Virus genome (UHGV): UHGV-2031204
Origin: a virus
Length of the DNA stretch: 64,000 bases
Direction: 5' to 3' (one strand)
Shown here: positions 6,295 through 64,000 of the stretch, piece by piece
Position numbering within the stretch: position 1 is the stretch's first letter
Layout of the letters: each line of letters begins with the position of its first letter
The notes under the pieces: model-generated
Seen by the model: the letters and a program-made list of their open reading frames with translations, nothing else
Told to the model about the DNA's origin: nothing
Database searches by the model: none
Program-made: the position numbers and the translations under genes

Positions 6295-6307
6295 CAAAAA
6301 AATCTCC

Positions 6308-9300
6308 TTAATCGCGAATGATTACCGCCTGCACTTTATTGTTGGTGTCGATAAACGACATTACGCGCTCCTTGTTAAGATAAGGAGGTATCGGTAACGC
6401 AGCGTAATCCGCCAGGTTGTTATTAAATTCAGTTGCCACTAACGCATTAAGCGTTTCGGGGTCTGAACTGACACCGGTCAAATCCATAACGCGCACACGA
6501 TTTAATGAGGAATAGTTGCTAATATAGTCTAACAACGTACCATAGACTTTATTCGCGGTTGCGCTATCTGCCGTAGAACGGATGTTGGCACGAACCTCAT
6601 CCTCATAAAGTCCCCCTAAACCGTAGTAAATAGGGGTATACGGATCGTTAACGATAGGTGCGATATTGAACCCTGTTAAACGGTCAGTTAGAGGGATTTT
6701 CTGCGTAGCTCCCCCTGCTGCCGTGCAGCTTACGTATTTATCTGTCGCAGATAAAAACACCACGATGGTATACGTAGTGCCCGCTAAGGTCAATGTTGCG
6801 TTAAACGTTATTGCGTTATTTGCAGCACGGGTGTGGGTAAACGTTACGTCAGGTTGTAACGTATTCCACGGCGCAGGCGTAACACGCTTCGTTGGTGTGA
6901 AACCTAACACTACCGATTTCCCGCTACCGAAGTTCAAACCGAACCCTGCGTAACAATATTCACCGTTGCTGTCAGTTAAACGATAACCACGAGTGATAAG
7001 TAACGACAACCGCATAAACTCGCCGTCGGTGTTTTTCCAACAACCTAAAACAGTTTCTAACACCGTGCCAGTTTTTGCGTTGCTTTCTGTTTCCCAACTT
7101 ACCCGCATTCCTGCGTTCTTAAAAGCTGGGAACGTGTTGTGGATAAACCCGTGTAGGTTATCGCTTACTCCTTTCGCGTCAAAAATCCACTTGGATGCAA
7201 GCTGGTCGTATTTCACCCCGTCTAAAGCTTTATACTGCCCCCCGGCAACATAACGCCAATCTGCTTCACCGCGTACTACTGCCTGGAGTCCAGAAGCCCA
7301 GCAAGGCGCGCCTACCGTTAAGTTAGCTAACCCAAGCGCTGCACGTGACGCGGTGCGTTGAATGTGTGCGTTGTCATCGGCCTTATGATCTTTCAGTTCA
7401 CGGAAATCACCCAACCGTGTGACATTACGCATCTCCGTAACGAACACCTCAGAAATGTCGTTAACACCAATCAACCCTACACGCGTCATGGTATCCGTTT
7501 CAGCCTGACTGTAGCTGTCGTGGACAATATACTTCGCTTTGTTGTCAACAATATCAACAAAAATCCCTGCGTAGATTTCTGTATTCAATTTCGGAAAACG
7601 TTCACTGACGTTAATCGTCATCAACGGAACGTCGTATGTTTCACCACCGATAAAATACGTTGAAGCTGGAAGCGTGACCAGAATTTTGTCTTTGACCGTA
7701 AGGTCTATTAAGTCGTTACCAGACTCACCAAAACGTATAATGTCAAGACGTGCCTCCGAGTCAACACCGCTGACAGCGCGCTCCAATTTTTCAATCTGAG
7801 AAGTCTGCGCCATTACCACACTCCCATCGAGTGCTAAAGTCGCATCATCCACATCCAGACCAAATTTAATCAGACCACGTTTCGCGGTGGTTGCGTTTCC
7901 AGTACCAAAAGCGGTAAACGGGTGTTGGTGAACTTTAGGCGAGTATTTATCTAACTCCGCACGTTGTGCTGTAGAAATCGGTAAATCGACATCGGGCGTA
8001 TTCGCAACATTACCTAAACCAAAGGTAATCTTATCGATAGTAACCGAGCTGGTAAGTTGCATGTCGTTAATGTACGATTTAACTGCAACTAACTTACCGG
8101 TGAACTCCGCATCGAGTTTTTCAATCAGTGCTGGCGTTGCTGCAAGGTTTTCAGCGGTACCGAACTCATCGGTCAACTGCCAAGCTGCCAGAGTTGTTGT
8201 ATCGGTCGCGGTAGGAAGAATAAAGGTCGCTACGAACGGCGAGGCTTTTATCCCGCTACCGGTGATCGTAACCGTTGTTGTCGAGTTTGCGTAGAATAAA
8301 CCTGTACCACCTGCGGTATTGCCTGGCAGATACGGGGCTACGGTGGTGGGGTCTAAGAGTTTTTTACCACGCCACAACAATCCTCGGTCATCGGGGTATA
8401 GCACAAGCTGGTTAGTACCTGCTTGGAACGTTACGGGGTTGTTACCCACGTTAACATCAGTTGAACCTTGGCCAATAAACTTAATGGATTTCGGATCAAC
8501 AACAAACTGAGCGCCTAAACGTGTCTCGTCAACAACATCCGGTGCTTTCTTAATGGTAACCGTGTTACCTTTGTTTTGCGAACTAATGGTAACGGCGTCG
8601 GCAACATTATTGATCAGCGATTTAAAGTGGTGCTGATTCTCTAATGCTTCTAACGCAGCGTCCATGTTATTGAAGTTGATCCGACCGCTATACGTTTTAC
8701 TGTTTACGGTAATAACGACGTCAAACACATTCCCTGTACGCTTCAGTTGAAAACGTAGCGTAAAATCCCCATCCGGTATTGCCGGGTTAGGAGCTTGTGA
8801 AATATACCGAACTGCCGGTACCGGACTACCGTAACCGTGCAACGCCAGTTCGATAGTAAGAGTACCGGACCAGACTTCACCGGTAATCTCTACGTACTTA
8901 CCGGAGTTACTACCAGGATTTTCGTAGAAACGTAAACCAACCCTACCGACCGCTTCATTACCAGACGCTGTTTTACGTCCAGTAACAATAAAGTCAATAT
9001 CTTGCAGGTTGGCAGGCACCGCATTAAAGTTAGCACTGAAACCGCTTTTCGCTCCTGTATAACGAAGCGCACCGTGATATCTGTGACCACTACTAACATA
9101 GCTTTCGCTAAAATAAGGACTCACGTATTTCGACATCGAGACCGGATCAACTTCCGTCGTGAACGAAGTAAAACCCGGAAGTGTGGTAATCGTGCCGTTA
9201 ACGTTCTTGCTCGCCGATTCACGAAGCAGTTTTTTCTGTGCGGTTAACGTTGCTTGTGTTGGGTACTTAGCATTAACGTAATCCGTTAACTGCTGTTTCG

Positions 9301-10630
9301 TTTTCCCGTAAGCTAACGCGGCATCCGACGCAATACCATTCAGCTCTAACGCACGGATCGGACCCCACGTATCGGTGTGCGGGTTGTCCTTACGTGTAAC
9401 GTGTTCGTGTGCAGGCGCGTTACGATACAGCTGCTCAACTAACTGATGGTATTTAACTATTAACTGGTAAACATCGTTATCGACGTCAGGTTCTGGTGCG
9501 CCGGGTAAAGAACGAATTTGAATATAATCATTTTCGGCCGCATACCAGTTTAGATTAATGTTCGTTTTAAACTTCAACCATTTAGCAACATCCGTTTTCG
9601 AATACCCTGCCGAGAACTCATCAGGCGGCGTATCGACGTTGAATGTGTAATCCATGGTCTGTTTATTTGTTTTTACTACGATGACGTAAACACCGTTTCC
9701 GGGTTGACGGGTTACACTAAAATCGATATCGTTTTTTAACTCATCGTCAGTTAAACCGTTGATTAACGTATAATCGTAGTTTGTTGAACCGCTACCAATA
9801 GCGACCGTTAAGACCAGTGAGATTTTGCGCTGTTTTAGCTGCAGCCGTAGAATACTTGCACCGCCGTTAGCATAACAGAGCATCCAATCGATCTGTTCGT
9901 TTGGATTCAATTTCGTCATGTCTGGCAGAATAGCAGGAATTCTGTGTTTCACTGACAGGACGTAGTCGTTAAAGGTTGCAGTTTTATAACTCAAGCTATA
10001 ACGATGACGGGTAGTGTTGTAGGTGAAGCCACCTTTATTGTCGTATACGGCATACTGCTCGGAAGTGATAACCTTGCTATTAGCACGGTATTCCAAATCC
10101 AGGGTATTGCGTGCGATGGGGTTAAGCCGACTCACGACTTCCCCTAACGAATCGCCTAATCCAGCAATAGCCTGCATTAATTCCAGTTCACCTTTCCAAT
10201 TCTCCCAATCGAACTGGATATCAACCGGCGGAAAGTAAACGTCCCCGATGACGGTGTCCCACTGACACGCAGACGGGTATTTATCTTTATTGAGTTCGCG
10301 TTCTGCGGTAATCTGTTGTTGGGTAGCCTGACCGCAACCAACGGCGTGGTAATCTACCGTAAAATTCGATTTGTATTTGTCATTAACAATCCAAATCATC
10401 CCGTGAATGAGATAGGCTGTGCGCAACATACCGGTCTCGTACGGGTGTGTAATAATGTAATCGTCGCCTAAGGTCAGTGTTTTGCCGCCGCTCTTGACCA
10501 CCAGGGATGTGGTGAAAAAAGGGGCGTGGGCAGGTACCAACATTCGGTATTTCGTACCAATGACGGCGACCGCTTCACCGGTTATTTTATTCCCCGGTTT
10601 TTTGAAGTGTGGGTCTAAGACGACAGCCAT
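6308..10630 (-). CDS. tail fiber protein (1440 aa)
   Basis: Track ORF; AGGAG RBS 6 nt upstream of ATG (rev-comp of 10637..10641); LAATPALIEKL fiber motif; Thr/Gly/Ser/Asn-rich; stop overlaps RBS of next fiber gene. Confidence 0.7.
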   Translation of the reverse strand: MAVVLDPHFKKPGNKITGEAVAVIGTKYRMLVPAHAPFFTTSLVVKSGGKTLTLGDDYIITHPYETGMLRTAYLIHGMIWIVNDKYKSNFTVDYHAVGCGQATQQQITAERELNKDKYPSACQWDTVIGDVYFPPVDIQFDWENWKGELELMQAIAGLGDSLGEVVSRLNPIARNTLDLEYRANSKVITSEQYAVYDNKGGFTYNTTRHRYSLSYKTATFNDYVLSVKHRIPAILPDMTKLNPNEQIDWMLCYANGGASILRLQLKQRKISLVLTVAIGSGSTNYDYTLINGLTDDELKNDIDFSVTRQPGNGVYVIVVKTNKQTMDYTFNVDTPPDEFSAGYSKTDVAKWLKFKTNINLNWYAAENDYIQIRSLPGAPEPDVDNDVYQLIVKYHQLVEQLYRNAPAHEHVTRKDNPHTDTWGPIRALELNGIASDAALAYGKTKQQLTDYVNAKYPTQATLTAQKKLLRESASKNVNGTITTLPGFTSFTTEVDPVSMSKYVSPYFSESYVSSGHRYHGALRYTGAKSGFSANFNAVPANLQDIDFIVTGRKTASGNEAVGRVGLRFYENPGSNSGKYVEITGEVWSGTLTIELALHGYGSPVPAVRYISQAPNPAIPDGDFTLRFQLKRTGNVFDVVITVNSKTYSGRINFNNMDAALEALENQHHFKSLINNVADAVTISSQNKGNTVTIKKAPDVVDETRLGAQFVVDPKSIKFIGQGSTDVNVGNNPVTFQAGTNQLVLYPDDRGLLWRGKKLLDPTTVAPYLPGNTAGGTGLFYANSTTTVTITGSGIKASPFVATFILPTATDTTTLAAWQLTDEFGTAENLAATPALIEKLDAEFTGKLVAVKSYINDMQLTSSVTIDKITFGLGNVANTPDVDLPISTAQRAELDKYSPKVHQHPFTAFGTGNATTAKRGLIKFGLDVDDATLALDGSVVMAQTSQIEKLERAVSGVDSEARLDIIRFGESGNDLIDLTVKDKILVTLPASTYFIGGETYDVPLMTINVSERFPKLNTEIYAGIFVDIVDNKAKYIVHDSYSQAETDTMTRVGLIGVNDISEVFVTEMRNVTRLGDFRELKDHKADDNAHIQRTASRAALGLANLTVGAPCWASGLQAVVRGEADWRYVAGGQYKALDGVKYDQLASKWIFDAKGVSDNLHGFIHNTFPAFKNAGMRVSWETESNAKTGTVLETVLGCWKNTDGEFMRLSLLITRGYRLTDSNGEYCYAGFGLNFGSGKSVVLGFTPTKRVTPAPWNTLQPDVTFTHTRAANNAITFNATLTLAGTTYTIVVFLSATDKYVSCTAAGGATQKIPLTDRLTGFNIAPIVNDPYTPIYYGLGGLYEDEVRANIRSTADSATANKVYGTLLDYISNYSSLNRVRVMDLTGVSSDPETLNALVATEFNNNLADYAALPIPPYLNKERVMSFIDTNNKVQAVIIRD

Positions 10631-53407: not shown

Positions 53408-54238
53408 ATGGGCGAACGTTTTGACATCAACACTATTTACAACATCGTAGTTAATCCTGGTCAGCACCTGGAAGAAGTTAACGCACAACTGCGCGCTCTG
53501 AATGAGAATGCAGTACAGTTCGATGCTATTTACACAATTGGTGTAAACCCTGGCACCAACCGTATTCGTGTAGAAGGTAAACGTCACACCGGTAATCAAG
53601 AACTGGACATCGAAACAATTGTAGCGCCTATTAAGCTTACCGATGCTGTTTACAACGGCACGGTAATGCATACAGAATCTGTTCCGGTCTACTCTATTGA
53701 AAACTGTGTAGAACGTGTTAAAGGTTGGTCTAAAGAACGTGGTATTCTCGACAACGGTAAACTGGAAACTCAAATCACAAAGTTCTATGAAGAATTTGGT
53801 GAGATTGCAACAGGTATCAGCAAAAACAAACCTGAACTGATCATGGACGGCATCGGCGATGCGTTGGTGGTTCTGGTAAACATCCTGGAACTGGATAAGG
53901 ACAGAGTGACTGGCGGAATGACAACCGCTGAAGTCATCGAACGCGGTTTACAATTGCAGGTAGATGATGTCGCTGACGTTGAAGAACGTTTAAACGATAC
54001 CAAATATCCACACCAGTTGTATTTAGAGGCTACCGAAATCTTCGCTACTGCGTTCTTACGTACTGAACTGGGTACTGTTACGTTAGGTTGGGCTTTACAT
54101 CGTCTTGCGCGACTCGCTCTCTATTATCGTCTTAACATTCGTCATTGTTTCTCTTTGGCCTGGCACGAAATCAAAGACCGTAAAGGTTATCTGAACGCCG
54201 ACGGTATCTTTGTAAAAGAAGCAGACCTGGCGAAATAA
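53408..54238 (+). CDS. MazG-like nucleotide pyrophosphohydrolase domain protein (276 aa)
   Basis: C-terminal half has the all-alpha NTP-PPase pattern EEFGEIATGI...ELIMDGIGDALVVLVNILELDKD; N-terminal ~100 aa has a duplicated IY.I.VNPG motif. Confidence 0.5.
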   Translation: MGERFDINTIYNIVVNPGQHLEEVNAQLRALNENAVQFDAIYTIGVNPGTNRIRVEGKRHTGNQELDIETIVAPIKLTDAVYNGTVMHTESVPVYSIENCVERVKGWSKERGILDNGKLETQITKFYEEFGEIATGISKNKPELIMDGIGDALVVLVNILELDKDRVTGGMTTAEVIERGLQLQVDDVADVEERLNDTKYPHQLYLEATEIFATAFLRTELGTVTLGWALHRLARLALYYRLNIRHCFSLAWHEIKDRKGYLNADGIFVKEADLAK

Positions 54239-54246
54239 ATAAAAGT

Positions 54247-54290
54247 ACCTACCTCCTTTCGGAGGTAGGTTAACTTTCTTATTTTTTTTC
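54247..54290. terminator. bidirectional intrinsic terminator
   Basis: Stem ACCTACCTCC/GGAGGTAGGT, loop TTTC, then ~25-nt T-rich tract; between convergent stops 54238 and 54296. Confidence 0.7.
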
Positions 54291-54295
54291 TTTTT

Positions 54296-54859
54296 TTAAG
54301 CGCCTGGAACAATCCCAGAAGAGATATACGTCAAACCGTCAAGTTCAGTGACTTTAATCAACTTCGAAATATCCTTACCGTCGGACGGCAGCTCTGTTAA
54401 GTACACCTCCAGCCGTCCTGTCCACGCCAAAGATGTCCCATTCATGGTAATGATGGTTTTATCTTTGCTGTCTGGTGCAGCTGTTGGGTTCTCAACTTCG
54501 TCGTCAGTAATCTGTAAATTGTACTTATTGCGGAAAAGCTGTAGTACCTCAGATACCGTAGCCGCATTAACACCCGCAACAGAAACTACAAAGTCACCTA
54601 AGAGGTGCTCTAAATCCAAACGACGATAAATAACGTCAATTTTACCAAACGTTTTCTGTTCAATAATTCCCTGGACGCTAAGTTGGGTATTTAATCGCGT
54701 AAATTGAGTTTCTGGTGTTTCTACCGCAGGAATATGTGACGGTGTACCAAAATTCAACTTATCGATTGTAATACCTTTCTCTACCAAACCAGGATTCTTT
54801 TTTACTAATAACTCATAAACCAGTTGTTTTCCTGATTTACCTAATAGCGTATTAGCCAT
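54296..54859 (-). CDS. hypothetical protein (187 aa), possibly virion-associated
   Basis: Track ORF; first gene of minus-strand right-hand block. Confidence 0.5.
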   Translation of the reverse strand: MANTLLGKSGKQLVYELLVKKNPGLVEKGITIDKLNFGTPSHIPAVETPETQFTRLNTQLSVQGIIEQKTFGKIDVIYRRLDLEHLLGDFVVSVAGVNAATVSEVLQLFRNKYNLQITDDEVENPTAAPDSKDKTIITMNGTSLAWTGRLEVYLTELPSDGKDISKLIKVTELDGLTYISSGIVPGA

Positions 54860-54875
54860 TATTTCCTCTCAAACA

Positions 54876-57047
54876 TTAACGTGCTTGCGGCAAGAAGATG
54901 TTCGCGATCTGGCGTGCTGGGATAACATCCAGTGCAGAGTTAATAAAACTACCCTGTGACCACGCGGATGCCCAGTTTTGTGCCCAGATGCTCGCATTAA
55001 TCTTGGCACGCGCAATGCCGTTAGTACGCTCGTACAACGTAGCACCACCTAAACACGCCATAAATTCACTAAATTTATTATCGTCATCCCACACACCTGT
55101 GTCGGTAACAATGGGCATGTACATAACGCGAGTCAAATCACGAATAGTAACAGAGATATCGCAAGACAGCGGAACGGAATCACCTGGCCGCCAACCTAAA
55201 CCACCCACACCGAATTGCAATGACATTGACGTCACCATCGCATTACGGAAAGAAAAGCGTCCTTGTGAGTAACACTCTAAATAGAACGGGTGAGTAAAAG
55301 ATTGTTTACCTGTAGCCAGCGGACAAACCGCAGCGATCCAGAATGACAGTGGAACGAGCAAGTCTTGGAAGATATCCAAATCGTTGCCAGACCAACAGCG
55401 TAACGGTATCGTTAACGTAATGTCATCACCCGACGCATCCGAACTGTCCCACACTTCTGGAAAGTCAATTACCGAAGAATTGTACAACGACATGATCCCT
55501 GTCAAATGTAAGGTGTCGGCAACGCCACGCATCGCGGACTTAATCCCGGAAACTAAAGCATCTACAGCGCTGAAACCCGTTTGACCACCGGATAAGTTGA
55601 CTTCTAACGAACGTGCTTTCGCGGTTAACGAGTTAACGGTACCAGAAATCTCTGGCTCTTTAGTAGAGTTAGAGAACGAACGAGAAACCGTGTCTTTAGC
55701 ATCGATACGCCACGATACCCATTGTGAACCATTACGGATTTCAGAAAGCGCATTTTCCTTAATACCGTCGATATAGTTTTTACCCATTTCGACGAAATCT
55801 TTAAAGAAACTACCTACATTTTCTTTAGAACCCGCATCTGCCCATTCTTGTATCTTAGCTATATCAGGGACATCCTCACCACCGATTTCGCTTTCAGCTT
55901 TTTCCGCAGCAGCCATGTTTGCTGCCATTGATTCTCGAAGTTTCTTTGTGTTCGCATCAATTTCATCTGCGGTACCGCCAGCGGTTAGTGTGCCAGTGAT
56001 CCCTTCAACCAACTTAGACTCTTGATCGTTAATATTTTCAAAAGGCGCTTTATAAGCGTTGTCTTTTTGAGCAACCGTTTCTAAGTCATGCAACGAAACT
56101 TCGAAACTACCCGCATCATTAATAACGCGTTTGGAGTACATCCCTTCGTTATAAAACGCACGTAGTTTTCTTGCAAATGCTTCTTCATCTCCACCGCTTT
56201 CAACACGCATTTGCTCTATGGCTTTGGTCTGATAATCCGCTAACGTTTGATAGCGGTTTATCATTCGATAAACGTCAAACTCCCCGTTATCTTTCCAGAT
56301 AGTAGGCAACGAAGCATACCAGTCTTGTTTATCATTGCTGTATGAATTTGTGCCATCGTCGGTATTTTCTTGTAGTTTGAAATTACCGAGCACGCCTGTG
56401 GGAACCAAACGACGATAAATAAGTTGCGTATTCAAGATGTTCTGTACAGCACGCAAATACAAATGCATCGTTGGCTTGACGTAATAGTAACGCGATGTTT
56501 GTTTGTTCAACACCGCTTTTAGAATTCGTGGTGTAATAAGAATAACCGCAAAGGCAACGGTACCTACAGTGGCCCATATTGCTGCTGCACCTAAATACGA
56601 AACCATCGTTCTCATCATACCTGGATAGTCACCAGTACGAGCCAAGTACGCTAGGTTGGAGTCGTACATGTTCGCAAAGAATGCGGCCATACCCAGATAT
56701 TTCGGTTTACCGAACCGACAGTGAACATAAAACGAATTCTGATTAATACTTTCGTAGAAATAAGTACCGAGTTTATACGAACCTGTTTCTCGGTTATTAG
56801 AGAATGTTTTGGTTTCGGCTCTCGGGTTGTCGGGTTGTGCAAATGCGCCAGTCGATGGCGGATCTGCAAACCATGTAAATTGGGGTGGTGTGTTAATCGC
56901 TTTACTGCCACCTAACGTGGTGTCCTCGAACGATAACATACCGTTGGAGTAGCGTCGCAAGGCCAGGAAACGTTCATCTCGGCCATCCAACACGCCGTTA
57001 AAGAGGCTTTTGACCCAGCTTGAGTCGTTAGCTGTTCTAGCGTCCAC
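54876..57047 (-). CDS. hypothetical protein (723 aa) with one hydrophobic segment, possibly internal virion protein
   Basis: Track ORF; GTG start with AGAGG RBS 7 nt upstream; TM-like AAAIWATVGTVAFAVILI. Confidence 0.55.
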   Translation of the reverse strand: MDARTANDSSWVKSLFNGVLDGRDERFLALRRYSNGMLSFEDTTLGGSKAINTPPQFTWFADPPSTGAFAQPDNPRAETKTFSNNRETGSYKLGTYFYESINQNSFYVHCRFGKPKYLGMAAFFANMYDSNLAYLARTGDYPGMMRTMVSYLGAAAIWATVGTVAFAVILITPRILKAVLNKQTSRYYYVKPTMHLYLRAVQNILNTQLIYRRLVPTGVLGNFKLQENTDDGTNSYSNDKQDWYASLPTIWKDNGEFDVYRMINRYQTLADYQTKAIEQMRVESGGDEEAFARKLRAFYNEGMYSKRVINDAGSFEVSLHDLETVAQKDNAYKAPFENINDQESKLVEGITGTLTAGGTADEIDANTKKLRESMAANMAAAEKAESEIGGEDVPDIAKIQEWADAGSKENVGSFFKDFVEMGKNYIDGIKENALSEIRNGSQWVSWRIDAKDTVSRSFSNSTKEPEISGTVNSLTAKARSLEVNLSGGQTGFSAVDALVSGIKSAMRGVADTLHLTGIMSLYNSSVIDFPEVWDSSDASGDDITLTIPLRCWSGNDLDIFQDLLVPLSFWIAAVCPLATGKQSFTHPFYLECYSQGRFSFRNAMVTSMSLQFGVGGLGWRPGDSVPLSCDISVTIRDLTRVMYMPIVTDTGVWDDDNKFSEFMACLGGATLYERTNGIARAKINASIWAQNWASAWSQGSFINSALDVIPARQIANIFLPQAR

Positions 57048-57054
57048 TTTATAC

Positions 57055-57087
57055 CTCTAAAAAAGTAGGGGGTAGGTAACTACCCCC
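57055..57087 (-). terminator. intrinsic terminator on minus strand
   Basis: Stem GGGGGTAG/CTACCCCC (57068-57087); minus-strand read gives hairpin then TACTTTTTTAGAG. Confidence 0.5.
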
Positions 57088-57095
57088 GATTACTG

Positions 57096-60000
57096 TTACG
57101 CCCGTTTACGACCAACGTCGAGTTGGCGGGCAGGTTGTTCAACCGCGATGTTACGTGATGCTGATCCCGGAGCAGAAGCTGCCGAGGTCGCTGGGGATGG
57201 CTGCATAGCCTGTGGTCTCTGACGAAGAATTGTTACAATCTCTCTCAGATAGCCCGCAGACTCTTTTGCAACCGCCAGCTGCTGTACGCTGATCGGATCA
57301 CCACTGTTCACTGTTGGTGTAGTCTGTGCATCAGACGTTACCGTTGGTGCAGGACGTGCGGATTTCTCCATTTGCTGTCTAGCACCTTCTTTTACTTTGG
57401 CAACTTCCTCTTCGCCCAGACCGTCAGCACGCGCATTTTGACCCACCGTTTCAACAACGACAGACGCATCACTTGGCGTGACGTCACCGCCAGGGCTCGG
57501 CACAGCCGGACCACCACCCGTTGCAGCTTTAATATCTTCAGCGCCCATCGCACCTTTGTCTGCTAAAGCGGAGTCACGATTCGCCTCGTTCGCGGCTGGC
57601 AGGTTATCTGCCGGACCAGCAATAGACGGATCGTTAGCTGCGCCAGCAGCAATTGCAGGAGACGATGGAACTGGTGATAACCCTTTCGTCATGTTTTTCG
57701 CAGACGCAGGATTTGCTGCAATCTCGTTGGTTCCAACCGCACCCATACGGCGGTTCAGTTCCTCGACAACCTCACCGATCGTACGCATCCTAACGCGTTT
57801 CTTCCCGTTCATGATATAGAAAACACCTTCATTACCGTTAAGAACGGCAGGTGTGATGTACTTCACTTTGTCGGGCGACCCGTTAGGATTGGTTTTCCAG
57901 GCTTTAAGGAACTCAGCACCACCACCTGGACCTAAGAAGTGGTACAGGTACGCTACTGCCGGAGGTGGGGCAATTCCACCCAGATCCTTTTGTGCGGTCT
58001 TGATGTTGTCTCTAATGAAGTTAACACCTAAGATTGCGTTAGCCCACGGGTCGAACTGGTCGGTTTGTGGAATACCGTATCTTCGGGCGTACTGCTTCAT
58101 AACCCCATTCCAAGTGCCATTGGTAAATTGGAACAGGCCAGCGGCAGACATCTTATTACTTCTCGGTCTACCAGAGGATGCGCCAGGATAGTTGCCATAC
58201 TGTAAGCCAGATTCTGCTTGTGCCATTGCAATCGCAACAGATGGTGGAACACCCACCATGTTTGCCGCGTCAATAATCAATGACTTGATGGCTTCAGTAT
58301 TTGACTGCATCGGTTTACCGAGCATTTCCCTTGGGTATTTAGTCACTAAGGATTTGTAATCGCCGTCTTGTAACTCACCGAGGGTGATACCAGATTGTCC
58401 AGTGGAATACTTCGCATAGTTCCCTATACCCATATCGCCAACAACTTGTGATAAGTCACCTGGCGTTCCGTAGGACTGACCACCTTTCGGTAAGTATCCG
58501 TCGTTTGAAGCTTCGCCGTAGCTGTTAATTCCCTTATAACGCTCTTTGCTATCTTCATTCGTCTGATGGACACTGGAGTTTGTCGCTGGTGATTTCCATG
58601 TCATACGCTTAGGCGTGCTCGGTGTTTCTTTGAGCATGTTCCTTACAGCCAGATCGGGTTCTTTAGACAACTCTTTCAACGTTGCTAATTCTTCCCTCAC
58701 TGAACCTGCATCGGTATTCGCATCGCCTCCTAACGGGTTAAATGCGATTTCCCACACAGACTGACGGATACCCCCTTTCATGTTGTAAGCACCACGCATC
58801 ATCAGTGCCAGCTCATAGAGGAAACCCCCTGTGAGTTTCAAATCCAACGGATCGGCATGAGGTACGTAGCGTTTTACACCATAAACGTAGGTCATGAATA
58901 CAGGTAAGAAACGATTATAGAACCAGTTCTTGTAACGCTCCTCTTTTGGACCGCCAATTGCATCAGGCGCAATCGCAGAAATTGCTTTCTTCCAATCGCC
59001 CTTATAAATGCAATTTTTGATATCCGTGTCTTTCAACACTTCTTTCTCAAGCAATCTAAAGAGGGTACGTGTTGTCTCATTGACAGATTTCACACCGTAA
59101 GATTTCCAACGGACGGATTCCATCGCGTCCAAATCTTTCTTCTCAGGTAATGCTCTCCAGTCAACTTGAATTTGAACCTGTTCAGTACCGTCTTCCCAAC
59201 CCTCAGCTTTAGCAACAGTTTCGTTACGCTCGGTATCGTTCTTCGCGAGTACCTGCGAAGATTCTGCCACAGAAGCAACCTTATGCCCTTCAGGCACAGC
59301 ACCGGCTCCAGTTGTTTCCTTACGCTTATCATCACGACGCATGTTGATCGAACGGAAAACGCGATCTTGCGCCTCAACAACTTCTTCGCCTGACAAAAAT
59401 TCTGCCGGTGTGAAGGTCACGAAATCCCACGCTTTAGAGAACCAACCTTGGTTAACTTTACGGGGATCTGTCAGCGATTTAAAAGCAGGTGCATCTTTTG
59501 TCATCTTCATTTTGTTAAAGATGGTCAGCATGTCTGCTTTTGATACCTTCGACGGATTACCAACATCAGCTAACGCGATATCGTTATCCATTGAACGTAG
59601 CGCTGTAATCCAACGTAAATAGATCGGCACAAAACGTTGTAGCATAAACGCGGTAAACGCCAGCATTTCGCCTTTGTCTTCTACGTTAGTACCAAACCCT
59701 TCGGCCAGTTTCTTCACGTCGTCACCGGACAAACCACGCAACTGTGCTTGACCATTCTCTGTATAAGAGATGTACGGTTTCAAGTTGTCTTCTAAATAAC
59801 GCGCTTTTGCGCCGTCGTCGGAAGACCATTCATCATGATCTCTAAATCCGTACTGCGCCAATCGCATGTTATCCAGATACTGGGCATTTTCACGGGTTGC
59901 AGTTTTATACGCAAACCAAGACAGCGCAGCGCCTGCAGCGACCAAGCCAATAATCGGCCAGCCAACCGCAGTTACCACTGCAGAAGCCGCTGTTGCAACA

Positions 60001-63000
60001 GCACTCACCGCAGGGACAGCCAAACGGGTCACAGCAAACTTACCAACGTTCCACAACGCTTTGCCTGCAAACCCAACCGGCTTAAAGATTCCCCATTTTG
60101 CGACTTTACCTAAGATTGAACCCACTGTGCCTAAAATACTCACAATTGGTCCTACCAACGGCAGTCCTTTAAGGAAATCCATTACCCCACGTTTACCGCC
60201 TTTCTTCTCAGCCTCTTTCTTAGCCTTTTCCTCTTCCTTAGAACGACGACGGCGTCGGAAGAACTGGAAGTAATCGCGTTTTTCATCACTGGCAGGCGGT
60301 TTATTGCGTTGGCCGAACTTACTGAACATGGTTCTTAACAAACCATCCGAAGCACCTGCTTTTTCTGCAGAATCACGCATGGTATTAAACCACGACATTT
60401 CCTGAAGATTAACCATTCGGTTCAGGCGTTCCAATAAAGCTGACCCAACGCTACGGGCTTTCTGCTTCCCTTTATTAATCACACGTCCAGCGCTATCCGT
60501 TACGGTGTCTAAGTCTTCTTTTGCCGCATCGACAATACGTGTTTTAGACACCTTACCTCTTGCGTAGATGTGCTGACGATAAAACTCAGCAACGTCGTCA
60601 TCGCGTCCTGCTAAACGACTCTCCATTCGATAACGTGTTCCAATATCGTAACGCGGATCACGGAAGGTATCGACCATATCGCTTGCACGGCCACGGAAAC
60701 GGTCAAACCAACCTCGTGCTGCACCTCCCCAACGAGAAAGATGACCACCTACCGCACTGCGGTAACGGGATATCCTGTCACGCATCCGACCACGCCAATC
60801 CCGGAACCCTTGAAAATGTTCACGGAACCCTTCGCGTATGTCCTTAGCACGCTGGAATAATCCTTTAACTGAACTGGCCCCCGTATTCCGCTCCATCTGT
60901 TCTGTCCAGGTGTCATCTTCAGCTTCACCTGGCAATCTCCGGTTAAGGAGTTTGTAGATACGGATTAAGATGTGGTTAGTTTTACGGCCGTTCGACCATG
61001 AAAACACACTAAACCCACCGCCAGAACCCCCTTCCTTACGGTTCTGCCACCAACGTGTCAACGGGTTATCAGAAGCCAACTCTTTGAGTTTCTCAAACCC
61101 GCGTTTTGCATTGTTCCACAGACGAGCTGGCATTCCCGTTACACGGGAAATCATGCTCTGTAAACGGGTTTTCTCTGCGCCCTCTGGAACCTCATTTAGC
61201 CACTCACGTGCTTTCTCGAACAGGGAAGCCGCTTTAGGTGAAATGAAACCCAGAAGTTTCTTCGGTAAGGTCACAGCTTTATTTACTGCCGTTCCTGCTT
61301 TCCCAGAAATATACTGGAATAGCGCTTGAACTTTACCGCCTTTGTAGAAGCGTAGTTTACCTGCGGCAGCCAAATCAGCAGCCGCTAAGATTAAATTACC
61401 CGCTTCGTCGACAATATCACGTCCCAGTTTAATATCGTCGAGAGTTTTAAGTTGAACCAGCTTCTCAGTTTTCGGGTCAGCCTGGTAATATTCCCCAGCT
61501 TCTAAACGGCTTCCTTGTAATACGACGTTGCCGCGTTCATCGTAAATATCACGAACGCCTAAAACGCCTTTACCGAAAGCTACGGCAGAATTCCAACCCG
61601 TCGATAAAGTACCTGTTACTAACCCTTTCAGTCGGCTAAATACACCAGGACCTTCAGAGGAACCGCCTGAGAATTTCCCACGAATAAAACCACCTAATGC
61701 TTGTAGGCGATCTTTCCCGCGCAGGAACAGATTCTTACCAAACCGCCCTACGCCTGAACCGGTATCCCAAAGCACCCCGGCCCAGCGACGTAACAAACCT
61801 GTCTCACCCAGTACAATACGTTTGCGTTTACGACGACGTTTACGACCCGAGTCACTCGAGCTTTCAGATTCGTCACCGCCATCGCGACTACCGCCTAAAC
61901 TGGCTAGGAGAATGCCTTCCTCATCCATGTTCTTAACGTGTTTGAGGATGTCTTGCACTGTACTAGATTCTGGCTGTTTGCGTACGGCATCAATCAAACG
62001 GTCGAATTGCTGCTCCAGCCCAGCGTTCGTATCTGGACGACTGCTTAAAAGTTCAACAAAGTTAGTGGATTTCTCTCCATAAAGTACCGCAGCGAGTTGA
62101 CGTGCGCTTAAACCACGACCGCGACCACCTTTTCCACCACCACGTACGTTGGACAGTTCTTTGTCTTCAAAGCTCGGCTCTGCACCTGCACCCATTCGAC
62201 GCAAGTAATCGCCCAACGCAGAACCGTTTTGCAACTTACGCTGAATCTCTTGCTCACGGGTTAACGAACGTCCAGAACGGGTCTTACCCATCGACAGGTC
62301 GTTAAATAGCGTATAGGGATCGTTAATGTCCTTATCGACTTCGAAGATATCGTTCTTCGCATCGTATTTAAAAATGCCGGAATCACGAAGTGCGTTCTCG
62401 CCGTAAATCACAGACGCAGCATCAACCGTGTCCTGACGTGCACGAATCGTTGACTGGATAGCGGCGATTTTGTTTGAAATCGCGTTGCTCAGTTCATGGT
62501 GCCCACCAACCAGTTCCGCAGAACGGGCTTCTAAAACACCCTGAATCGCTTCCACAGCGTTTGCGTTCATGTAGCGATACATGTGCATCGGGTCTTTCAA
62601 TAAAGACCCTACATCGAACGCTTTCCCTTCTGAGGCACGAGATTCGATGTAGTCCGCTAATGCTTGACGTGTTTTCCGATCGAGCGTTTTATCTTTATCG
62701 ATAAAGTCAACAGTATCGTTGATGTAAGTCTGTAAACGTTTACGCTGGTCGTCATTAGCAACGGCCTTACGTACACGGTTGCCAATAACTTTACGATCCA
62801 CCATACCGCGCGTGGTCAGGTCATAAACCTGATCGTGGTGTTCACCATATCCACGACGAATAGATTTGTTAATCTCGGACAGTAACGTCGGAATAACTTC
62901 GGTGATGCTAAGGTAAGCTTTACGATCGAATTTCGCTGCGGCAGAAAGAGATTCCGCAGAACGATCGTCTAATGCTAACGTTTCGCGACGTAGCGGGTTA

Positions 63001-63953
63001 ACTAGCCCCAAATCGTGCATTAGTCGAAACAGATCAGCTAACGGGCCGCTTGTTTCTCCTGCTATTGCCGAGTTAGAAATAGACGACAAATTACCAAAAC
63101 CATACTTCGCCAACTGTAGGCGTTTCATGACTTCTGGATTTTTCTCTAACTCGCCACGAGTCCAGTTTTGAAGACGTTCGATCTGTGGCTGTAAGAGACG
63201 TTTTGCTAACCAACCACCTGCAAAACTTGCCGCTTTATTACGCGAGTTTGTGTTACGACGGTCAGGAGACAACGATGAGCTGTCCGACATGCCAAAGTCA
63301 TCTTCCTGAGCCATCCCTAGAACTTGTTCTAGAATCCCACGGCCATCGCTAAAGACGTTCGAGATTTTCTTCTTCGCATTTTCGCGAATCTGGTCAATGA
63401 AATTATCCGCGTAGTGTAAGGGGTTCATCCACTCCGCAGCTTTACGTTTTACATTAGCCCAACGAATTTCAGAAAACTCTTCCTTCGCGTAGTCTGGCAG
63501 CGCTGTGTTCTTAACGATGGCTTCTAATGCTGGTGTATTGCGTGCAAACTCGTCTTGTTTGAGTTTCGCAATATCTTGCAAAGCAAACAGCGTTCGATAC
63601 TGCAGCTCTAACTGCTTACGCTGAACATTTAACAACACGCCACGACTTAAGCTAGTCGTTAAGTTGACGTCTTTTGCAATACCGATTACTGTCTGGAACA
63701 GTGCGTCGGACTTCATGTCCTTAATCGTGTCACGCAAGCGGTCTTCAACCATCCCTTCTTGCGTTTCGCGTTGCTGGTCCGCTGTTTGCGGTGCGCCTGA
63801 GAACACGCTGTCCAGCTCACGATCCATCATCGCTTGTTTAGGATCGTAATTCCCATAGTCGATTTGATCGTTACGTGCCCACTTGTCGATTTTCCGTGTT
63901 ACGGATTCCGGTAAATACCGTTTCAGTGTTGGACCTAACTGTCTCGCTTGCAT
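57096..63953 (-). CDS. giant virion-associated protein (>=2285 aa) with central TM cluster and C-terminal GH23 lytic transglycosylase domain; N-terminus may lie beyond window end
   Basis: Track ORF; frame stays open upstream of ATG 63953 to position 64000 and that ATG lacks a clear RBS; GH23 motifs AQAESG, GLFQFTNGTWN, AYLYHF near C-terminus; hydrophobic run ~aa 1180-1260 (LPLVGPIVSILGTVGSILG...AVPAVSAVATAASAVVTAVGWPIIGLVAAGAALSWFAY); Arg/Gly-rich repeats. Confidence 0.7.
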   Translation of the reverse strand: MQARQLGPTLKRYLPESVTRKIDKWARNDQIDYGNYDPKQAMMDRELDSVFSGAPQTADQQRETQEGMVEDRLRDTIKDMKSDALFQTVIGIAKDVNLTTSLSRGVLLNVQRKQLELQYRTLFALQDIAKLKQDEFARNTPALEAIVKNTALPDYAKEEFSEIRWANVKRKAAEWMNPLHYADNFIDQIRENAKKKISNVFSDGRGILEQVLGMAQEDDFGMSDSSSLSPDRRNTNSRNKAASFAGGWLAKRLLQPQIERLQNWTRGELEKNPEVMKRLQLAKYGFGNLSSISNSAIAGETSGPLADLFRLMHDLGLVNPLRRETLALDDRSAESLSAAAKFDRKAYLSITEVIPTLLSEINKSIRRGYGEHHDQVYDLTTRGMVDRKVIGNRVRKAVANDDQRKRLQTYINDTVDFIDKDKTLDRKTRQALADYIESRASEGKAFDVGSLLKDPMHMYRYMNANAVEAIQGVLEARSAELVGGHHELSNAISNKIAAIQSTIRARQDTVDAASVIYGENALRDSGIFKYDAKNDIFEVDKDINDPYTLFNDLSMGKTRSGRSLTREQEIQRKLQNGSALGDYLRRMGAGAEPSFEDKELSNVRGGGKGGRGRGLSARQLAAVLYGEKSTNFVELLSSRPDTNAGLEQQFDRLIDAVRKQPESSTVQDILKHVKNMDEEGILLASLGGSRDGGDESESSSDSGRKRRRKRKRIVLGETGLLRRWAGVLWDTGSGVGRFGKNLFLRGKDRLQALGGFIRGKFSGGSSEGPGVFSRLKGLVTGTLSTGWNSAVAFGKGVLGVRDIYDERGNVVLQGSRLEAGEYYQADPKTEKLVQLKTLDDIKLGRDIVDEAGNLILAAADLAAAGKLRFYKGGKVQALFQYISGKAGTAVNKAVTLPKKLLGFISPKAASLFEKAREWLNEVPEGAEKTRLQSMISRVTGMPARLWNNAKRGFEKLKELASDNPLTRWWQNRKEGGSGGGFSVFSWSNGRKTNHILIRIYKLLNRRLPGEAEDDTWTEQMERNTGASSVKGLFQRAKDIREGFREHFQGFRDWRGRMRDRISRYRSAVGGHLSRWGGAARGWFDRFRGRASDMVDTFRDPRYDIGTRYRMESRLAGRDDDVAEFYRQHIYARGKVSKTRIVDAAKEDLDTVTDSAGRVINKGKQKARSVGSALLERLNRMVNLQEMSWFNTMRDSAEKAGASDGLLRTMFSKFGQRNKPPASDEKRDYFQFFRRRRRSKEEEKAKKEAEKKGGKRGVMDFLKGLPLVGPIVSILGTVGSILGKVAKWGIFKPVGFAGKALWNVGKFAVTRLAVPAVSAVATAASAVVTAVGWPIIGLVAAGAALSWFAYKTATRENAQYLDNMRLAQYGFRDHDEWSSDDGAKARYLEDNLKPYISYTENGQAQLRGLSGDDVKKLAEGFGTNVEDKGEMLAFTAFMLQRFVPIYLRWITALRSMDNDIALADVGNPSKVSKADMLTIFNKMKMTKDAPAFKSLTDPRKVNQGWFSKAWDFVTFTPAEFLSGEEVVEAQDRVFRSINMRRDDKRKETTGAGAVPEGHKVASVAESSQVLAKNDTERNETVAKAEGWEDGTEQVQIQVDWRALPEKKDLDAMESVRWKSYGVKSVNETTRTLFRLLEKEVLKDTDIKNCIYKGDWKKAISAIAPDAIGGPKEERYKNWFYNRFLPVFMTYVYGVKRYVPHADPLDLKLTGGFLYELALMMRGAYNMKGGIRQSVWEIAFNPLGGDANTDAGSVREELATLKELSKEPDLAVRNMLKETPSTPKRMTWKSPATNSSVHQTNEDSKERYKGINSYGEASNDGYLPKGGQSYGTPGDLSQVVGDMGIGNYAKYSTGQSGITLGELQDGDYKSLVTKYPREMLGKPMQSNTEAIKSLIIDAANMVGVPPSVAIAMAQAESGLQYGNYPGASSGRPRSNKMSAAGLFQFTNGTWNGVMKQYARRYGIPQTDQFDPWANAILGVNFIRDNIKTAQKDLGGIAPPPAVAYLYHFLGPGGGAEFLKAWKTNPNGSPDKVKYITPAVLNGNEGVFYIMNGKKRVRMRTIGEVVEELNRRMGAVGTNEIAANPASAKNMTKGLSPVPSSPAIAAGAANDPSIAGPADNLPAANEANRDSALADKGAMGAEDIKAATGGGPAVPSPGGDVTPSDASVVVETVGQNARADGLGEEEVAKVKEGARQQMEKSARPAPTVTSDAQTTPTVNSGDPISVQQLAVAKESAGYLREIVTILRQRPQAMQPSPATSAASAPGSASRNIAVEQPARQLDVGRKRA

Positions 63954-64000
63954 CTTAACGACGCGAGACGTCTTTTCAATCTCGTCTTTCGTATGGGCCA

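Follow-up and report, generated by a model that had tools for sequence, protein, structure and literature searches.

Genome organization at the locus

The window analysed here is a stretch of 64,000 nucleotides from the virus genome UHGV-2031204, and its right-hand end carries a giant minus-strand gene that runs off the window edge and leads a block of three genes transcribed in the same direction. The block and its two candidate hairpins are organized as follows.

57096 to 64000, minus strand: giant tail protein gene, 5'-truncated; 2300 codons plus a stop codon at 57096-57098 (2388 codons in the full gene on contig L007; PHROG 3201, E = 0)
57068 to 57087, minus strand: G+C-rich hairpin followed by a T-run, within the 48 nt that separate the stop codon from the next gene; candidate terminator-like or attenuator-like element (consensus scan only)
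54876 to 57047, minus strand: downstream neighbour, 723 aa, homologous to phiKZ gp182 (baseplate spacer ring protein) and to SPN3US gp238 (phmmer, PHROG 3181)
54296 to 54859, minus strand: last of the three genes, 187 aa, DUF7941 virion structural protein (Pfam PF25613, E 3.4e-24; PHROG 2935 'virion structural protein')
54247 to 54270, no strand assigned: candidate bidirectional terminator-like hairpin closing the three-gene block (consensus scan only)

A convergent MazG-like gene faces the block across the 54247-54270 hairpin. The upstream neighbour of the giant gene is a divergently transcribed 539-aa gene 29 nt away, and the order of divergent virion RNA polymerase genes, giant gene and gp182-like gene is common to loci L007 and L008, SPN3US and SL2; within this phage lineage the neighbourhood is conserved at loci L003, L007 and L008. 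The 723-aa product of the downstream gene matches PHROG 3181 with an E-value of 1e-253, and its phmmer matches in the PDB include PHIKZ182 (9xqs_K, E 1e-53) and the 'tail tube initiator complex protein gp203' (11lx_H, E 2.5e-55). In phiKZ, gp182 acts as the baseplate spacer (PMC13250141), and SPN3US gp238 is both essential and tail-associated (SPN3US literature). Through this PHIKZ182-like gene the giant gene adjoins baseplate hub/initiator genes, as is expected of a tape measure gene. There is no pair of tail-assembly chaperone genes ahead of it, and the divergent polymerase gene occupies that place instead, as it does in SPN3US and SL2. Upstream chaperone genes with a programmed frameshift are common for tape measure genes, though not universal.

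Extent of the giant gene and its relatives

Translation of the minus strand from 57096 to 63998 yields a single stop-free frame of 2300 codons that reaches the window edge, a run that cannot have arisen by chance in DNA of 45-49% GC; the first ATG inside the window, at 63953, would give a product of 2285 aa. An ENA metagenome contig (L007) is 100.000% identical to window positions 54001-64000 (10,000 nt, 0 mismatches) and extends beyond the window. The full gene on L007 encodes 2388 aa, the final 2300 of which match the window protein exactly, and its ATG lies 262 nt past position 64000 with an in-frame TGA six codons further upstream, so that the length of the giant protein is now fixed at 2388 aa. 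The first-pass annotation of this DNA had put the protein at 2285 aa or more and had proposed extension past position 64000 to find the true start; the gene does prove longer, and the extension supplied its start codon.

The window fragment is 60.6% identical over 100% of its length to sequences of SPN3US and Proteus phage 7 in tblastn searches, in which 234 phage records match, almost exclusively those of jumbo phages, and the PHROG 3201 profile match scores 1953 bits. BLASTP comparison with the 2237-aa ortholog of gp181 in Phikzvirus SL2 shows that the two are collinear over the N-terminus, middle and C-terminus at about 22-25% identity. Judged from these alignments, the giant protein and SPN3US gp239 are orthologs over their full length, and phiKZ gp181 is a distant collinear homolog. 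The gp181/gp239 family has already been described and this is an ordinary additional member of it, with a length of 2388 aa and a predicted catalytic glutamate 372 aa from the C-terminus in a family of proteins of about 2200-2600 aa in which some 350 aa separate the muralytic domain from the C-terminus.

Domain organization

The regions of the protein are listed from N- to C-terminus, with residues numbered from the start of the 2300-residue window fragment.

60189 to 63998, minus strand: mainly alpha-helical N-terminal region, proposed length ruler, residues 1-1270 (full-length 89-1358; AF2)
63459 to 63536, minus strand: best-conserved N-terminal motif, TPALEAIVKNTALPDYAKEEFSEIRW, residues 155-180 (58-sequence alignment)
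61344 to 61583, minus strand: small beta unit, residues about 806-885, with two copies of I(Y/V)DExGNxxL...AG..Y (motif search)
60189 to 60269, minus strand: strongly basic patch directly ahead of the hydrophobic cluster, residues 1244-1270, sequence FQFFRRRRRSKEEEKAKKEAEKKGGKR
59910 to 60188, minus strand: hydrophobic helix cluster, residues 1271-1363 (Kyte-Doolittle 19-residue means up to 2.0)
58659 to 59909, minus strand: conserved alpha-helical domain between the hydrophobic cluster and the lysin, residues 1364-1780 (AF2 pLDDT mostly 80-93)
58323 to 58658, minus strand: Gly/Ser-rich, poorly conserved linker, residues 1781-1892 (composition, AF2, alignment)
57801 to 58322, minus strand: GH23/SLT lytic transglycosylase domain, residues 1893-2066 (Pfam PF01464)
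58212 to 58214, minus strand: codon of the predicted catalytic glutamate E1929 (full-length E2017), followed by S1930 (checked by translation)
57099 to 57800, minus strand: region rich in Ala and Pro at the C-terminus, predicted to form several helices, residues 2067-2300 (composition, conservation, AF2)

Residues 1-1200 are 67% helix and 4% strand in the AF2 model, with helices of up to 90 residues. The N-terminal half contains very long low-confidence helices (74-164, 173-230 and 245-312; pLDDT 58 for the half), together with a confident folded stretch at about residues 280-600, and a PDB fold search with the N-terminal model returned no match at E < 1. Within the conserved motif, N164, T165, L167, P168 and K172 are invariant across the 58-sequence alignment, in which identity falls as low as 18%. 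The beta unit is modelled with strands at 825-871 (pLDDT 73-83) and aligns with the Phikzvirus ortholog. We note that the folded sub-domains at 280-600 and 820-880 are a poor fit to a simple extended coiled coil.

The hydrophobic cluster, which is preceded by the basic stretch FFRRRRRSKEEEKAKKEAEKKGGKR, consists of a helix at 1275-1300, an amphipathic segment at 1301-1325 and a back-to-back hairpin formed by 1326-1344 and 1345-1363. The hairpin residue P1348 (in 'GWP') is invariant across the alignment, and a hydrophobic peak is present at the equivalent position in all but two of the 57 database homologs. The cluster of the true Phikzvirus ortholog is weak, being Gly/Ala-rich with Kyte-Doolittle values that never exceed 1.5, so membrane insertion may not be a universal trait of the gp181/gp239 family.

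The alpha domain that follows is alignable to the Phikzvirus ortholog and has invariant residues at R1379, Y1383, G1384, E1403, R1455, P1458, R1630 and G1635; it matches no Pfam family and no specific PDB fold. The linker has an AF2 pLDDT of about 30-45 (model residues 580-648) and the lowest conservation of the alignment. The Pfam PF01464 match spans residues 1907-2005 and, at 33.9 bits, clears the cut-off of 21.3, the domain has the lysozyme-like alpha-helical fold, and AESG (containing E1929-S1930) and GLFQF (1954-1958) are kept in all SLT-bearing homologs; by these motifs the domain is an intact GH23 lytic transglycosylase and a predicted enzyme. Residues 2067-2300 are poorly conserved save at the extreme C-terminus (R2297).

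This layout bears out the first-pass annotation in its description of about three consecutive hydrophobic helices in the middle of the protein, to which one amphipathic segment is added, and of a GH23 domain with catalytic ES and GLFQF near the C-terminus. Its description of the N-terminal part as Arg/Gly-rich holds for local tracts (14 R and 22 G in residues 701-800, and 33 R in residues 1001-1200) and not for the region as a whole.

A likely tape measure protein that also carries a tail lysin

We consider it likely that the gene encodes a tail tape measure protein that incorporates a lysin of the tail, and that it belongs to an uncultivated SPN3US-like (phiKZ-related) jumbo myovirus. Proteomics assigns SPN3US gp239 to the tail, as a virion protein that tailless particles lose, and publications on SPN3US name it as the tail tape measure (PMC5105663, PMC10052503, PMC5694885). 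A TnSeq preprint on phiKZ reports that orf181 is essential, with no transposon insertions in its 6,714 bp, and describes it as 'likely the tape measure' (PMC12676376), and a fragment of phiKZ gp181 has muralytic activity (PMC5380687). The tape-measure role of the family rests on size, tail location and analogy, and we found no report in the literature of length mutants that change tail length in the gp181/gp239 family. The initial suggestion of a tape-measure or ejection protein carrying a wall-degrading domain gains support from the 60% identity to SPN3US gp239 and the collinearity with the gp181 ortholog, and the SLT-containing jumbo myovirus protein of roughly 2200 aa mentioned at that stage can be recognized as gp181, whose 2237-aa Phikzvirus ortholog is about 25% identical.

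The same homologs bear on two other roles. A head-packaged ejection protein of the T7 gp16 or 'internal virion protein D' type would be ejected with the DNA and combine a trans-envelope channel with an SLT domain, but this is very improbable here: SPN3US gp239 is absent from tailless head particles or depleted more than 10-fold in them, the 'internal virion protein D' match is limited to residues 1880-2087 and hence to the lysin domain, and the giant gene adjoins baseplate genes. The homolog data thus favour a tape measure located in the tail. That the protein is a tail fibre, as the GenBank records and the PHROG 3201 label have it, is barely credible, its support being confined to these database labels. 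Both AF2 models have only 4% strand and lack fibre-like beta structure, there are no fibre-like PDB matches, and the protein has hydrophobic helices clustered in its interior as well as a lytic transglycosylase; moreover, the experimental literature names the homologs tape measure or tail lysin, and the phiKZ fibres are built from gp131-family proteins. The label 'tail fiber protein' is probably wrong.

The length of the protein is open to more than one interpretation. In phiKZ, taken here as the yardstick, the tail is 2000 A long and the tube lumen about 68 A wide (PMC13250141). At 1.5 A per residue, about 1350 residues would span about 200 nm, which is of the order of the phiKZ tail, whereas all 2388 aa would span about 358 nm, so that at most the N-terminal part can serve as a ruler. 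This excess over the length needed for a helical ruler of ~200 nm, along with the folded AF2 sub-domains in the N-terminal half and the lack of upstream chaperone genes, would also suit a tail-internal or baseplate-associated lysin or penetration protein, a cargo or plug delivered on contraction, with tail length set by another factor. PhiKZ gp181 was earlier viewed in this light, and a review lists it as a 'needle-like cell-puncturing device, putative trimer' (PMC5380687). We regard such a role as unlikely, however, since the phiKZ cryo-EM atlas builds the puncturing device from gp164, gp163.1, gp101 and gp182, as spike, tip, hub and spacer, and does not include gp181 among the modelled proteins (PMC13250141), and the SPN3US and phiKZ literature annotates no other giant helical protein as the tape measure. 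The pattern of length variation in the family is also that predicted for a ruler. Among 57 homologs the length varies mainly at the N-terminal side, where the segment before the invariant Pro ranges from 1239 to 1727 aa (sd 100), and the C-terminal module is nearly constant in size, with 578 +/- 35 aa from the Pro to the catalytic Glu and 353 +/- 18 aa from the Glu to the C-terminus. This fits a variable ruler joined to a fixed envelope-penetration module.

A plausible course of events for a tape measure with a built-in lysin is that a few copies of the giant protein would lie inside the lumen of the tail tube, which would polymerise around the N-terminal ~1350 residues as its scaffold or ruler, with the C-terminal ~1000 residues at the baseplate end. 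Sheath contraction would expel the protein ahead of the DNA, and the SLT domain would then make local cuts in the glycan strands of peptidoglycan. The hydrophobic helices may insert into a host membrane and help to form or anchor a conduit through which the DNA and the proteins ejected with it would pass.

In infections by phiKZ-like phages, the genome and the virion RNA polymerase enter a membrane-bound early-infection (EPI) vesicle derived from the inner membrane (PMC13250141). One could imagine that the constant C-terminal ~1000 residues are a lineage-specific inner-membrane module that is ejected and helps to create this vesicle, although we think this quite improbable. The parts of such a module would be the hydrophobic hairpin with its invariant Pro, the ~420-aa alpha domain and an exchangeable lysin, and the idea draws on how conserved and hydrophobic these parts are, on the absence of fold matches and on the inner-membrane origin of the vesicle (PMC13250141).

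Nothing here will be unexpected to specialists, and the main gain is one of annotation, as dozens of GenBank records and PHROG 3201 carry the name 'tail fiber protein'. We favour annotation as tape measure and tail lysin because published experiments on the homologs agree with the sequence, the structure predictions and the synteny. For the engineering of tail length, concrete boundaries come from the split between a ruler that varies at the N-terminal side and a C-terminal module of constant size, the exchange of lysin domains in place among relatives offers an entry point for mining virion-associated lysins, and the conserved alpha domain is a defined structural target for the study of envelope crossing by jumbo phages.

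Comparison with known systems

The closest counterpart is gp239 of Salmonella phage SPN3US (ACQ60_gp027, 2372 aa, 259 kDa), which has the same domain order and nearly equal length (2388 versus 2372 aa), and likewise lies between divergent virion RNA polymerase beta genes upstream and gp238-like and gp237-like genes downstream. The two differ in that identity is 60% for the protein and about 67% at the DNA level, with the greatest divergence in the C-terminal 200 residues and the linker ahead of the SLT domain. At these values the source phage belongs to another species than SPN3US and probably to another genus than Seoulvirus.

The resemblance to gp181 of Pseudomonas phage phiKZ (2237 aa), a structural peptidoglycan hydrolase, is more distant. 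It is collinear at residues 4-462, in the beta unit (806-871) and over the last 700 residues, in which the SLT domain lies, and a gp182 homolog lies downstream in both, but the Phikzvirus ortholog falls 150 aa short of the giant protein and has a much weaker, Gly/Ala-rich hydrophobic region. The phiKZ endolysin gp144, also the neck 'wedge' (PDB 3bkh, 9xps_S), is likewise a GH23 lytic transglycosylase; it is, however, a stand-alone enzyme of 260 aa with an N-terminal peptidoglycan-binding domain, whereas the catalytic domain here forms one part of a 2388-aa protein, close to its C-terminal end.

The proposed steps of expulsion, insertion into a membrane and digestion of the peptidoglycan are modelled on T5 pb2, which has the same order of modules, with a helical/coiled-coil part in the lumen, about two hydrophobic helices of transmembrane length and a muralytic domain (PMC10038345). 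No sequence homology was found between the two, and pb2 is a siphovirus protein of 1219 aa with a metallopeptidase rather than an SLT domain. The T5 lysin is cleaved off during assembly, and in the giant protein described here the ~420-aa conserved alpha domain separates the hydrophobic cluster from the lysin.

Recovery of the complete gene and its relatives

The minus strand between 57096 and 63998 holds 2300 codons without a stop, with translation terminating at 57096-57098, and no stop codon lies between the first ATG inside the window (63953, giving 2285 aa) and the window edge; on the plus strand, no ORF here exceeds 135 aa and none has support. The open frame of at least 2285 aa proposed by the first-pass annotation is thus real, and its suggestion that the frame runs past position 64000 is borne out by metagenome contig L007 (ENA ERZ773198 NODE_372), which matches window 54001-64000 at 10,000 of 10,000 positions and continues beyond it. 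The complete gene on this contig is 2388 codons, of which the final 2300 residues are the window protein; its ATG lies 262 nt past position 64000, and six codons before it the frame is closed by a TGA. Logan contig L003, which is 92% identical, carries the gene with an unchanged start, coding for 2388 aa at 97% protein identity. The 723-aa protein encoded downstream recurs without any difference on metagenome contigs, L007 among them.

A megablast search of 50,697 phage records with the gene gives no match, and relatives are reached by blastn (about 67% DNA identity) and tblastn only, showing that the phage is not a deposited isolate. Almost all of the 234 phage records matched by tblastn are jumbo phages, with hosts such as Pseudomonas, Erwinia, Salmonella, Serratia and Ralstonia. 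Seoulvirus genomes rank first, aligning to 100% of the fragment at 60.6% identity. The window is DNA of an SPN3US-like jumbo phage, and the giant protein is a roughly 60%-identical new member of an already described family.

The SPN3US ortholog is a 2372-aa product known as gp239 (259 kDa), which three proteomics studies detect in virions; they find it missing from tailless particles or reduced there more than 10-fold, and name it the tail tape measure protein (PMC5105663, PMC10052503, PMC5694885). A head-packaged ejection protein of the T7 gp16 type, which the lysin domain would recall, is therefore very unlikely, since the likeness is limited to that domain and heads lack the SPN3US homolog. 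The Phikzvirus SL2 ortholog has 2237 aa, the length of phiKZ orf181, and is collinear at the N-terminus, middle and C-terminus; muralytic activity is on record for phiKZ gp181 (review, PMC5380687). The window phage, SPN3US and SL2 have a common gene order, with divergent virion RNA polymerase beta genes followed by the giant gene and a gp182-like gene. The 723-aa product of the latter matches PHIKZ182 (E 1e-53), the protein that forms the spacer ring separating tube initiator from hub (phiKZ cryo-EM atlas, PMC13250141). The SPN3US and SL2 homologies support the earlier comparison with tape-measure or ejection proteins that carry a cell-wall-degrading domain and with SLT-containing virion proteins of jumbo myoviruses, and favour the tape measure of the two options.

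Domain organization

Segments of the giant protein (residues of the 2300-aa window fragment; adding 88 gives the full-length numbering)
74-164, 173-230 and 245-312: very long, low-confidence helices (AlphaFold2)
158-179: most conserved motif of the N-terminal part, ALEAIVKNTALPDYAKEEFSEI, with five invariant residues in the family alignment
About 280-600: confidently folded stretch (AlphaFold2)
About 820-880: small beta unit (AlphaFold2)
1244-1270: strongly basic patch
1271-1363: hydrophobic cluster, made up of a helix, then an amphipathic stretch, then a back-to-back hairpin of 38 residues
1364-1780: well conserved alpha domain (AlphaFold2 pLDDT 80-93)
1781-1892: Gly/Ser-rich, poorly conserved linker
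1893-2066: predicted GH23/SLT lytic transglycosylase domain (Pfam 33.9 bits, cut-off 21.3)
2067-2300: Ala/Pro-rich, poorly conserved tail

The N-terminal part (residues 1-1270), modelled by AlphaFold2 with a 50-sequence alignment, is predicted to be 67% helix and 4% strand. Arg/Gly-rich tracts occur in it, as the first-pass annotation described, but they are local rather than region-wide. Foldseek comparison of the model with the PDB gives only generic helical bundles and no match with E < 1; no DNA tandem repeats were found, and self-BLAST finds no internal protein repeats. Window 61344-61583 (residues 806-885) does encode two copies of the short sequence I(Y/V)DExGNxxL...AG..Y(Y). Many relatives, and with them the family consensus, are longer by about 100 residues that contain comparable 'DxxG...' units and are missing here, and alignment occupancy is 0.54 at residues 1051-1100; length in the family may vary at this site.

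The mid-protein hydrophobic cluster and the C-terminal GH23 domain with its ES and GLFQF signatures are both present as first described. The hairpin is built around an invariant 'GWP' proline. Of 57 database homologs, with identities as low as about 18%, 55 have a hydrophobic peak at the equivalent place; the cluster of the true Phikzvirus ortholog is weak. Conserved elements of the SLT domain are the catalytic pair E1929-S1930 and two motifs, GLFQF and YxxHFxG. Searches of Pfam with five separate segments (E <= 1) give no credible family besides SLT, NCBIfam has no match for the giant protein or its two neighbours, and a family profile searched against all PDB sequences finds no solved tape-measure homolog. 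The alpha domain has no Pfam, PDB-sequence or PDB-fold relative. Positions 1352-1480 of the profile, covering the hydrophobic region, match the T3SS translocator AopB (PDB 3wxx_B) marginally (E 0.058). Translocators are membrane-inserting hairpin proteins as well, and we considered a kinship and dropped it, as the match is not significant and probably compositional.

The family goes by 'tail fiber protein' in PHROG 3201 and in the majority of GenBank and RefSeq records, a name contradicted by the predicted structure, the motifs and the experimental literature. With no beta-rich fibre structure at all in the predicted models, a tail fibre is the most improbable of the readings, and the label looks like a propagated misannotation whose correction is a useful by-product.

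Neighbouring genes and occurrence of the lineage

Other features of the window
2092-6297 and 6308-10630, minus strand: a pair of neighbouring giant genes for paralogous virion structural proteins of 1401 and 1440 aa, PHROG 8078 and 7557
54247-54270: perfect 10-bp bidirectional hairpin between the three-gene tail block and a convergent MazG-like gene
57068-57087: G+C-rich hairpin and T-run in the 48-nt gap directly 3' of the tape-measure stop codon

The two paralogs have N-terminal and central similarity in common (PHROG 2163, 7449), and terminator-like sites are enriched in the stretch, with 11 observed and 3.5 expected in a consensus scan. For the gp182/gp238-like protein (54876-57047), the three matching PDB chains bear names that disagree. 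9xqs_K is PHIKZ182, 11lx_H is 'Tail tube initiator complex protein gp203' and 36za_rp is 'Capsid decorator gp77', a name that looks out of line with the first two.

The 90%-identity clusters of the 723-aa and 187-aa tail proteins (54296-57047) have members on contigs of about 222-228 kb in numerous bacterial isolate assemblies at NCBI, filed under Salmonella enterica, Shigella flexneri and E. coli; a single sequence accounts for up to 79 contigs. Identical sequences are present in human gut metagenomes. Relatives of about 76% DNA identity are filed as circular 'plasmids' of the complete genomes of E. coli 98232 (NZ_CP173450.1, 221,873 bp) and Enterobacter ludwigii (NZ_CP134650.1, 222,441 bp). 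A supposedly strictly lytic jumbo phage accompanying cultured isolates, whether through a carrier state, pseudolysogeny or contamination, merits a separate look.

Lysin exchange and length variation

In distant family members a GH19-type domain (PF00182, 'HETGGF' or 'VESGGF') replaces SLT at the same alignment position, and others have an added VanY-like peptidase (PF02557) and Peptidase_S74 domain (PF13884). The homologs with an altered lysin (P0041, P0042, P0081, P0113, P0094 and P0105) were aligned to window 57801-58322; in a further homolog, P0077, the catalytic Glu is lost. The alignments indicate a constant scaffold with an exchangeable lysin, and this in-place swapping is a useful by-product.

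Among the 57 homologs the segment before the hairpin varies from 1239 to 1727 aa (sd 100), and the distances from hairpin to catalytic Glu (578 +/- 35) and from Glu to C-terminus (353 +/- 18) are nearly fixed. As judged from these alignments, the pattern fits a ruler of variable length followed by a delivery module of nearly constant size, a partition that is itself a useful by-product and more telling than the comparison in nanometres. A tail-internal lysin with a role other than length ruler is an unlikely reading of the same protein.

A fully helical 2388-aa chain would extend about 358 nm, so the ruler can be part of the chain only. The pre-hairpin segment (1435 residues here, about 1340 in the Phikzvirus ortholog) corresponds at 1.5 A per residue to about 200-215 nm, of the order of the 2000 A phiKZ tail (PMC13250141). 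This is a rough consistency check rather than a test, because AlphaFold2 predicts folded sub-domains in that part, and it uses the phiKZ cryo-EM tail value only; the 116 nm tail published for the related phage pSal-SNUABM-04 was left out, as the accompanying 80 nm head is implausible for a 240-kb genome.

Probable tape measure role and comparison with phiKZ and T5

In the phiKZ atlas the puncturing device consists of gp164, gp163.1, gp101 and gp182, and gp181 is unmodelled (PMC13250141). This argues against the older assignment of gp181 as a cell-puncturing needle, which we rank low, and agrees with a protein located within the tube that is poorly ordered or does not share its symmetry. By calculation, a 259-kDa protein present in three to six copies would take up only about 13-26% of the volume of the phiKZ lumen, which is about 68 A wide (PMC13250141).

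T5 pb2 has the same succession of helical part, hydrophobic helices and lysin, and its hydrophobic stretch has been proposed to enter the membrane and its muralytic domain to digest peptidoglycan after expulsion (PMC10038345). Homology, domain content, catalytic motifs, gene neighbourhood and the length-variation pattern are shown by the analysis, whereas location and dynamics are inferred; with fairly high confidence overall, the most likely scenario is a tape measure that, as proposed for pb2, would be expelled from the tail tube on infection, whereupon the hydrophobic helices would insert into the membrane and the lysin domain would digest peptidoglycan.
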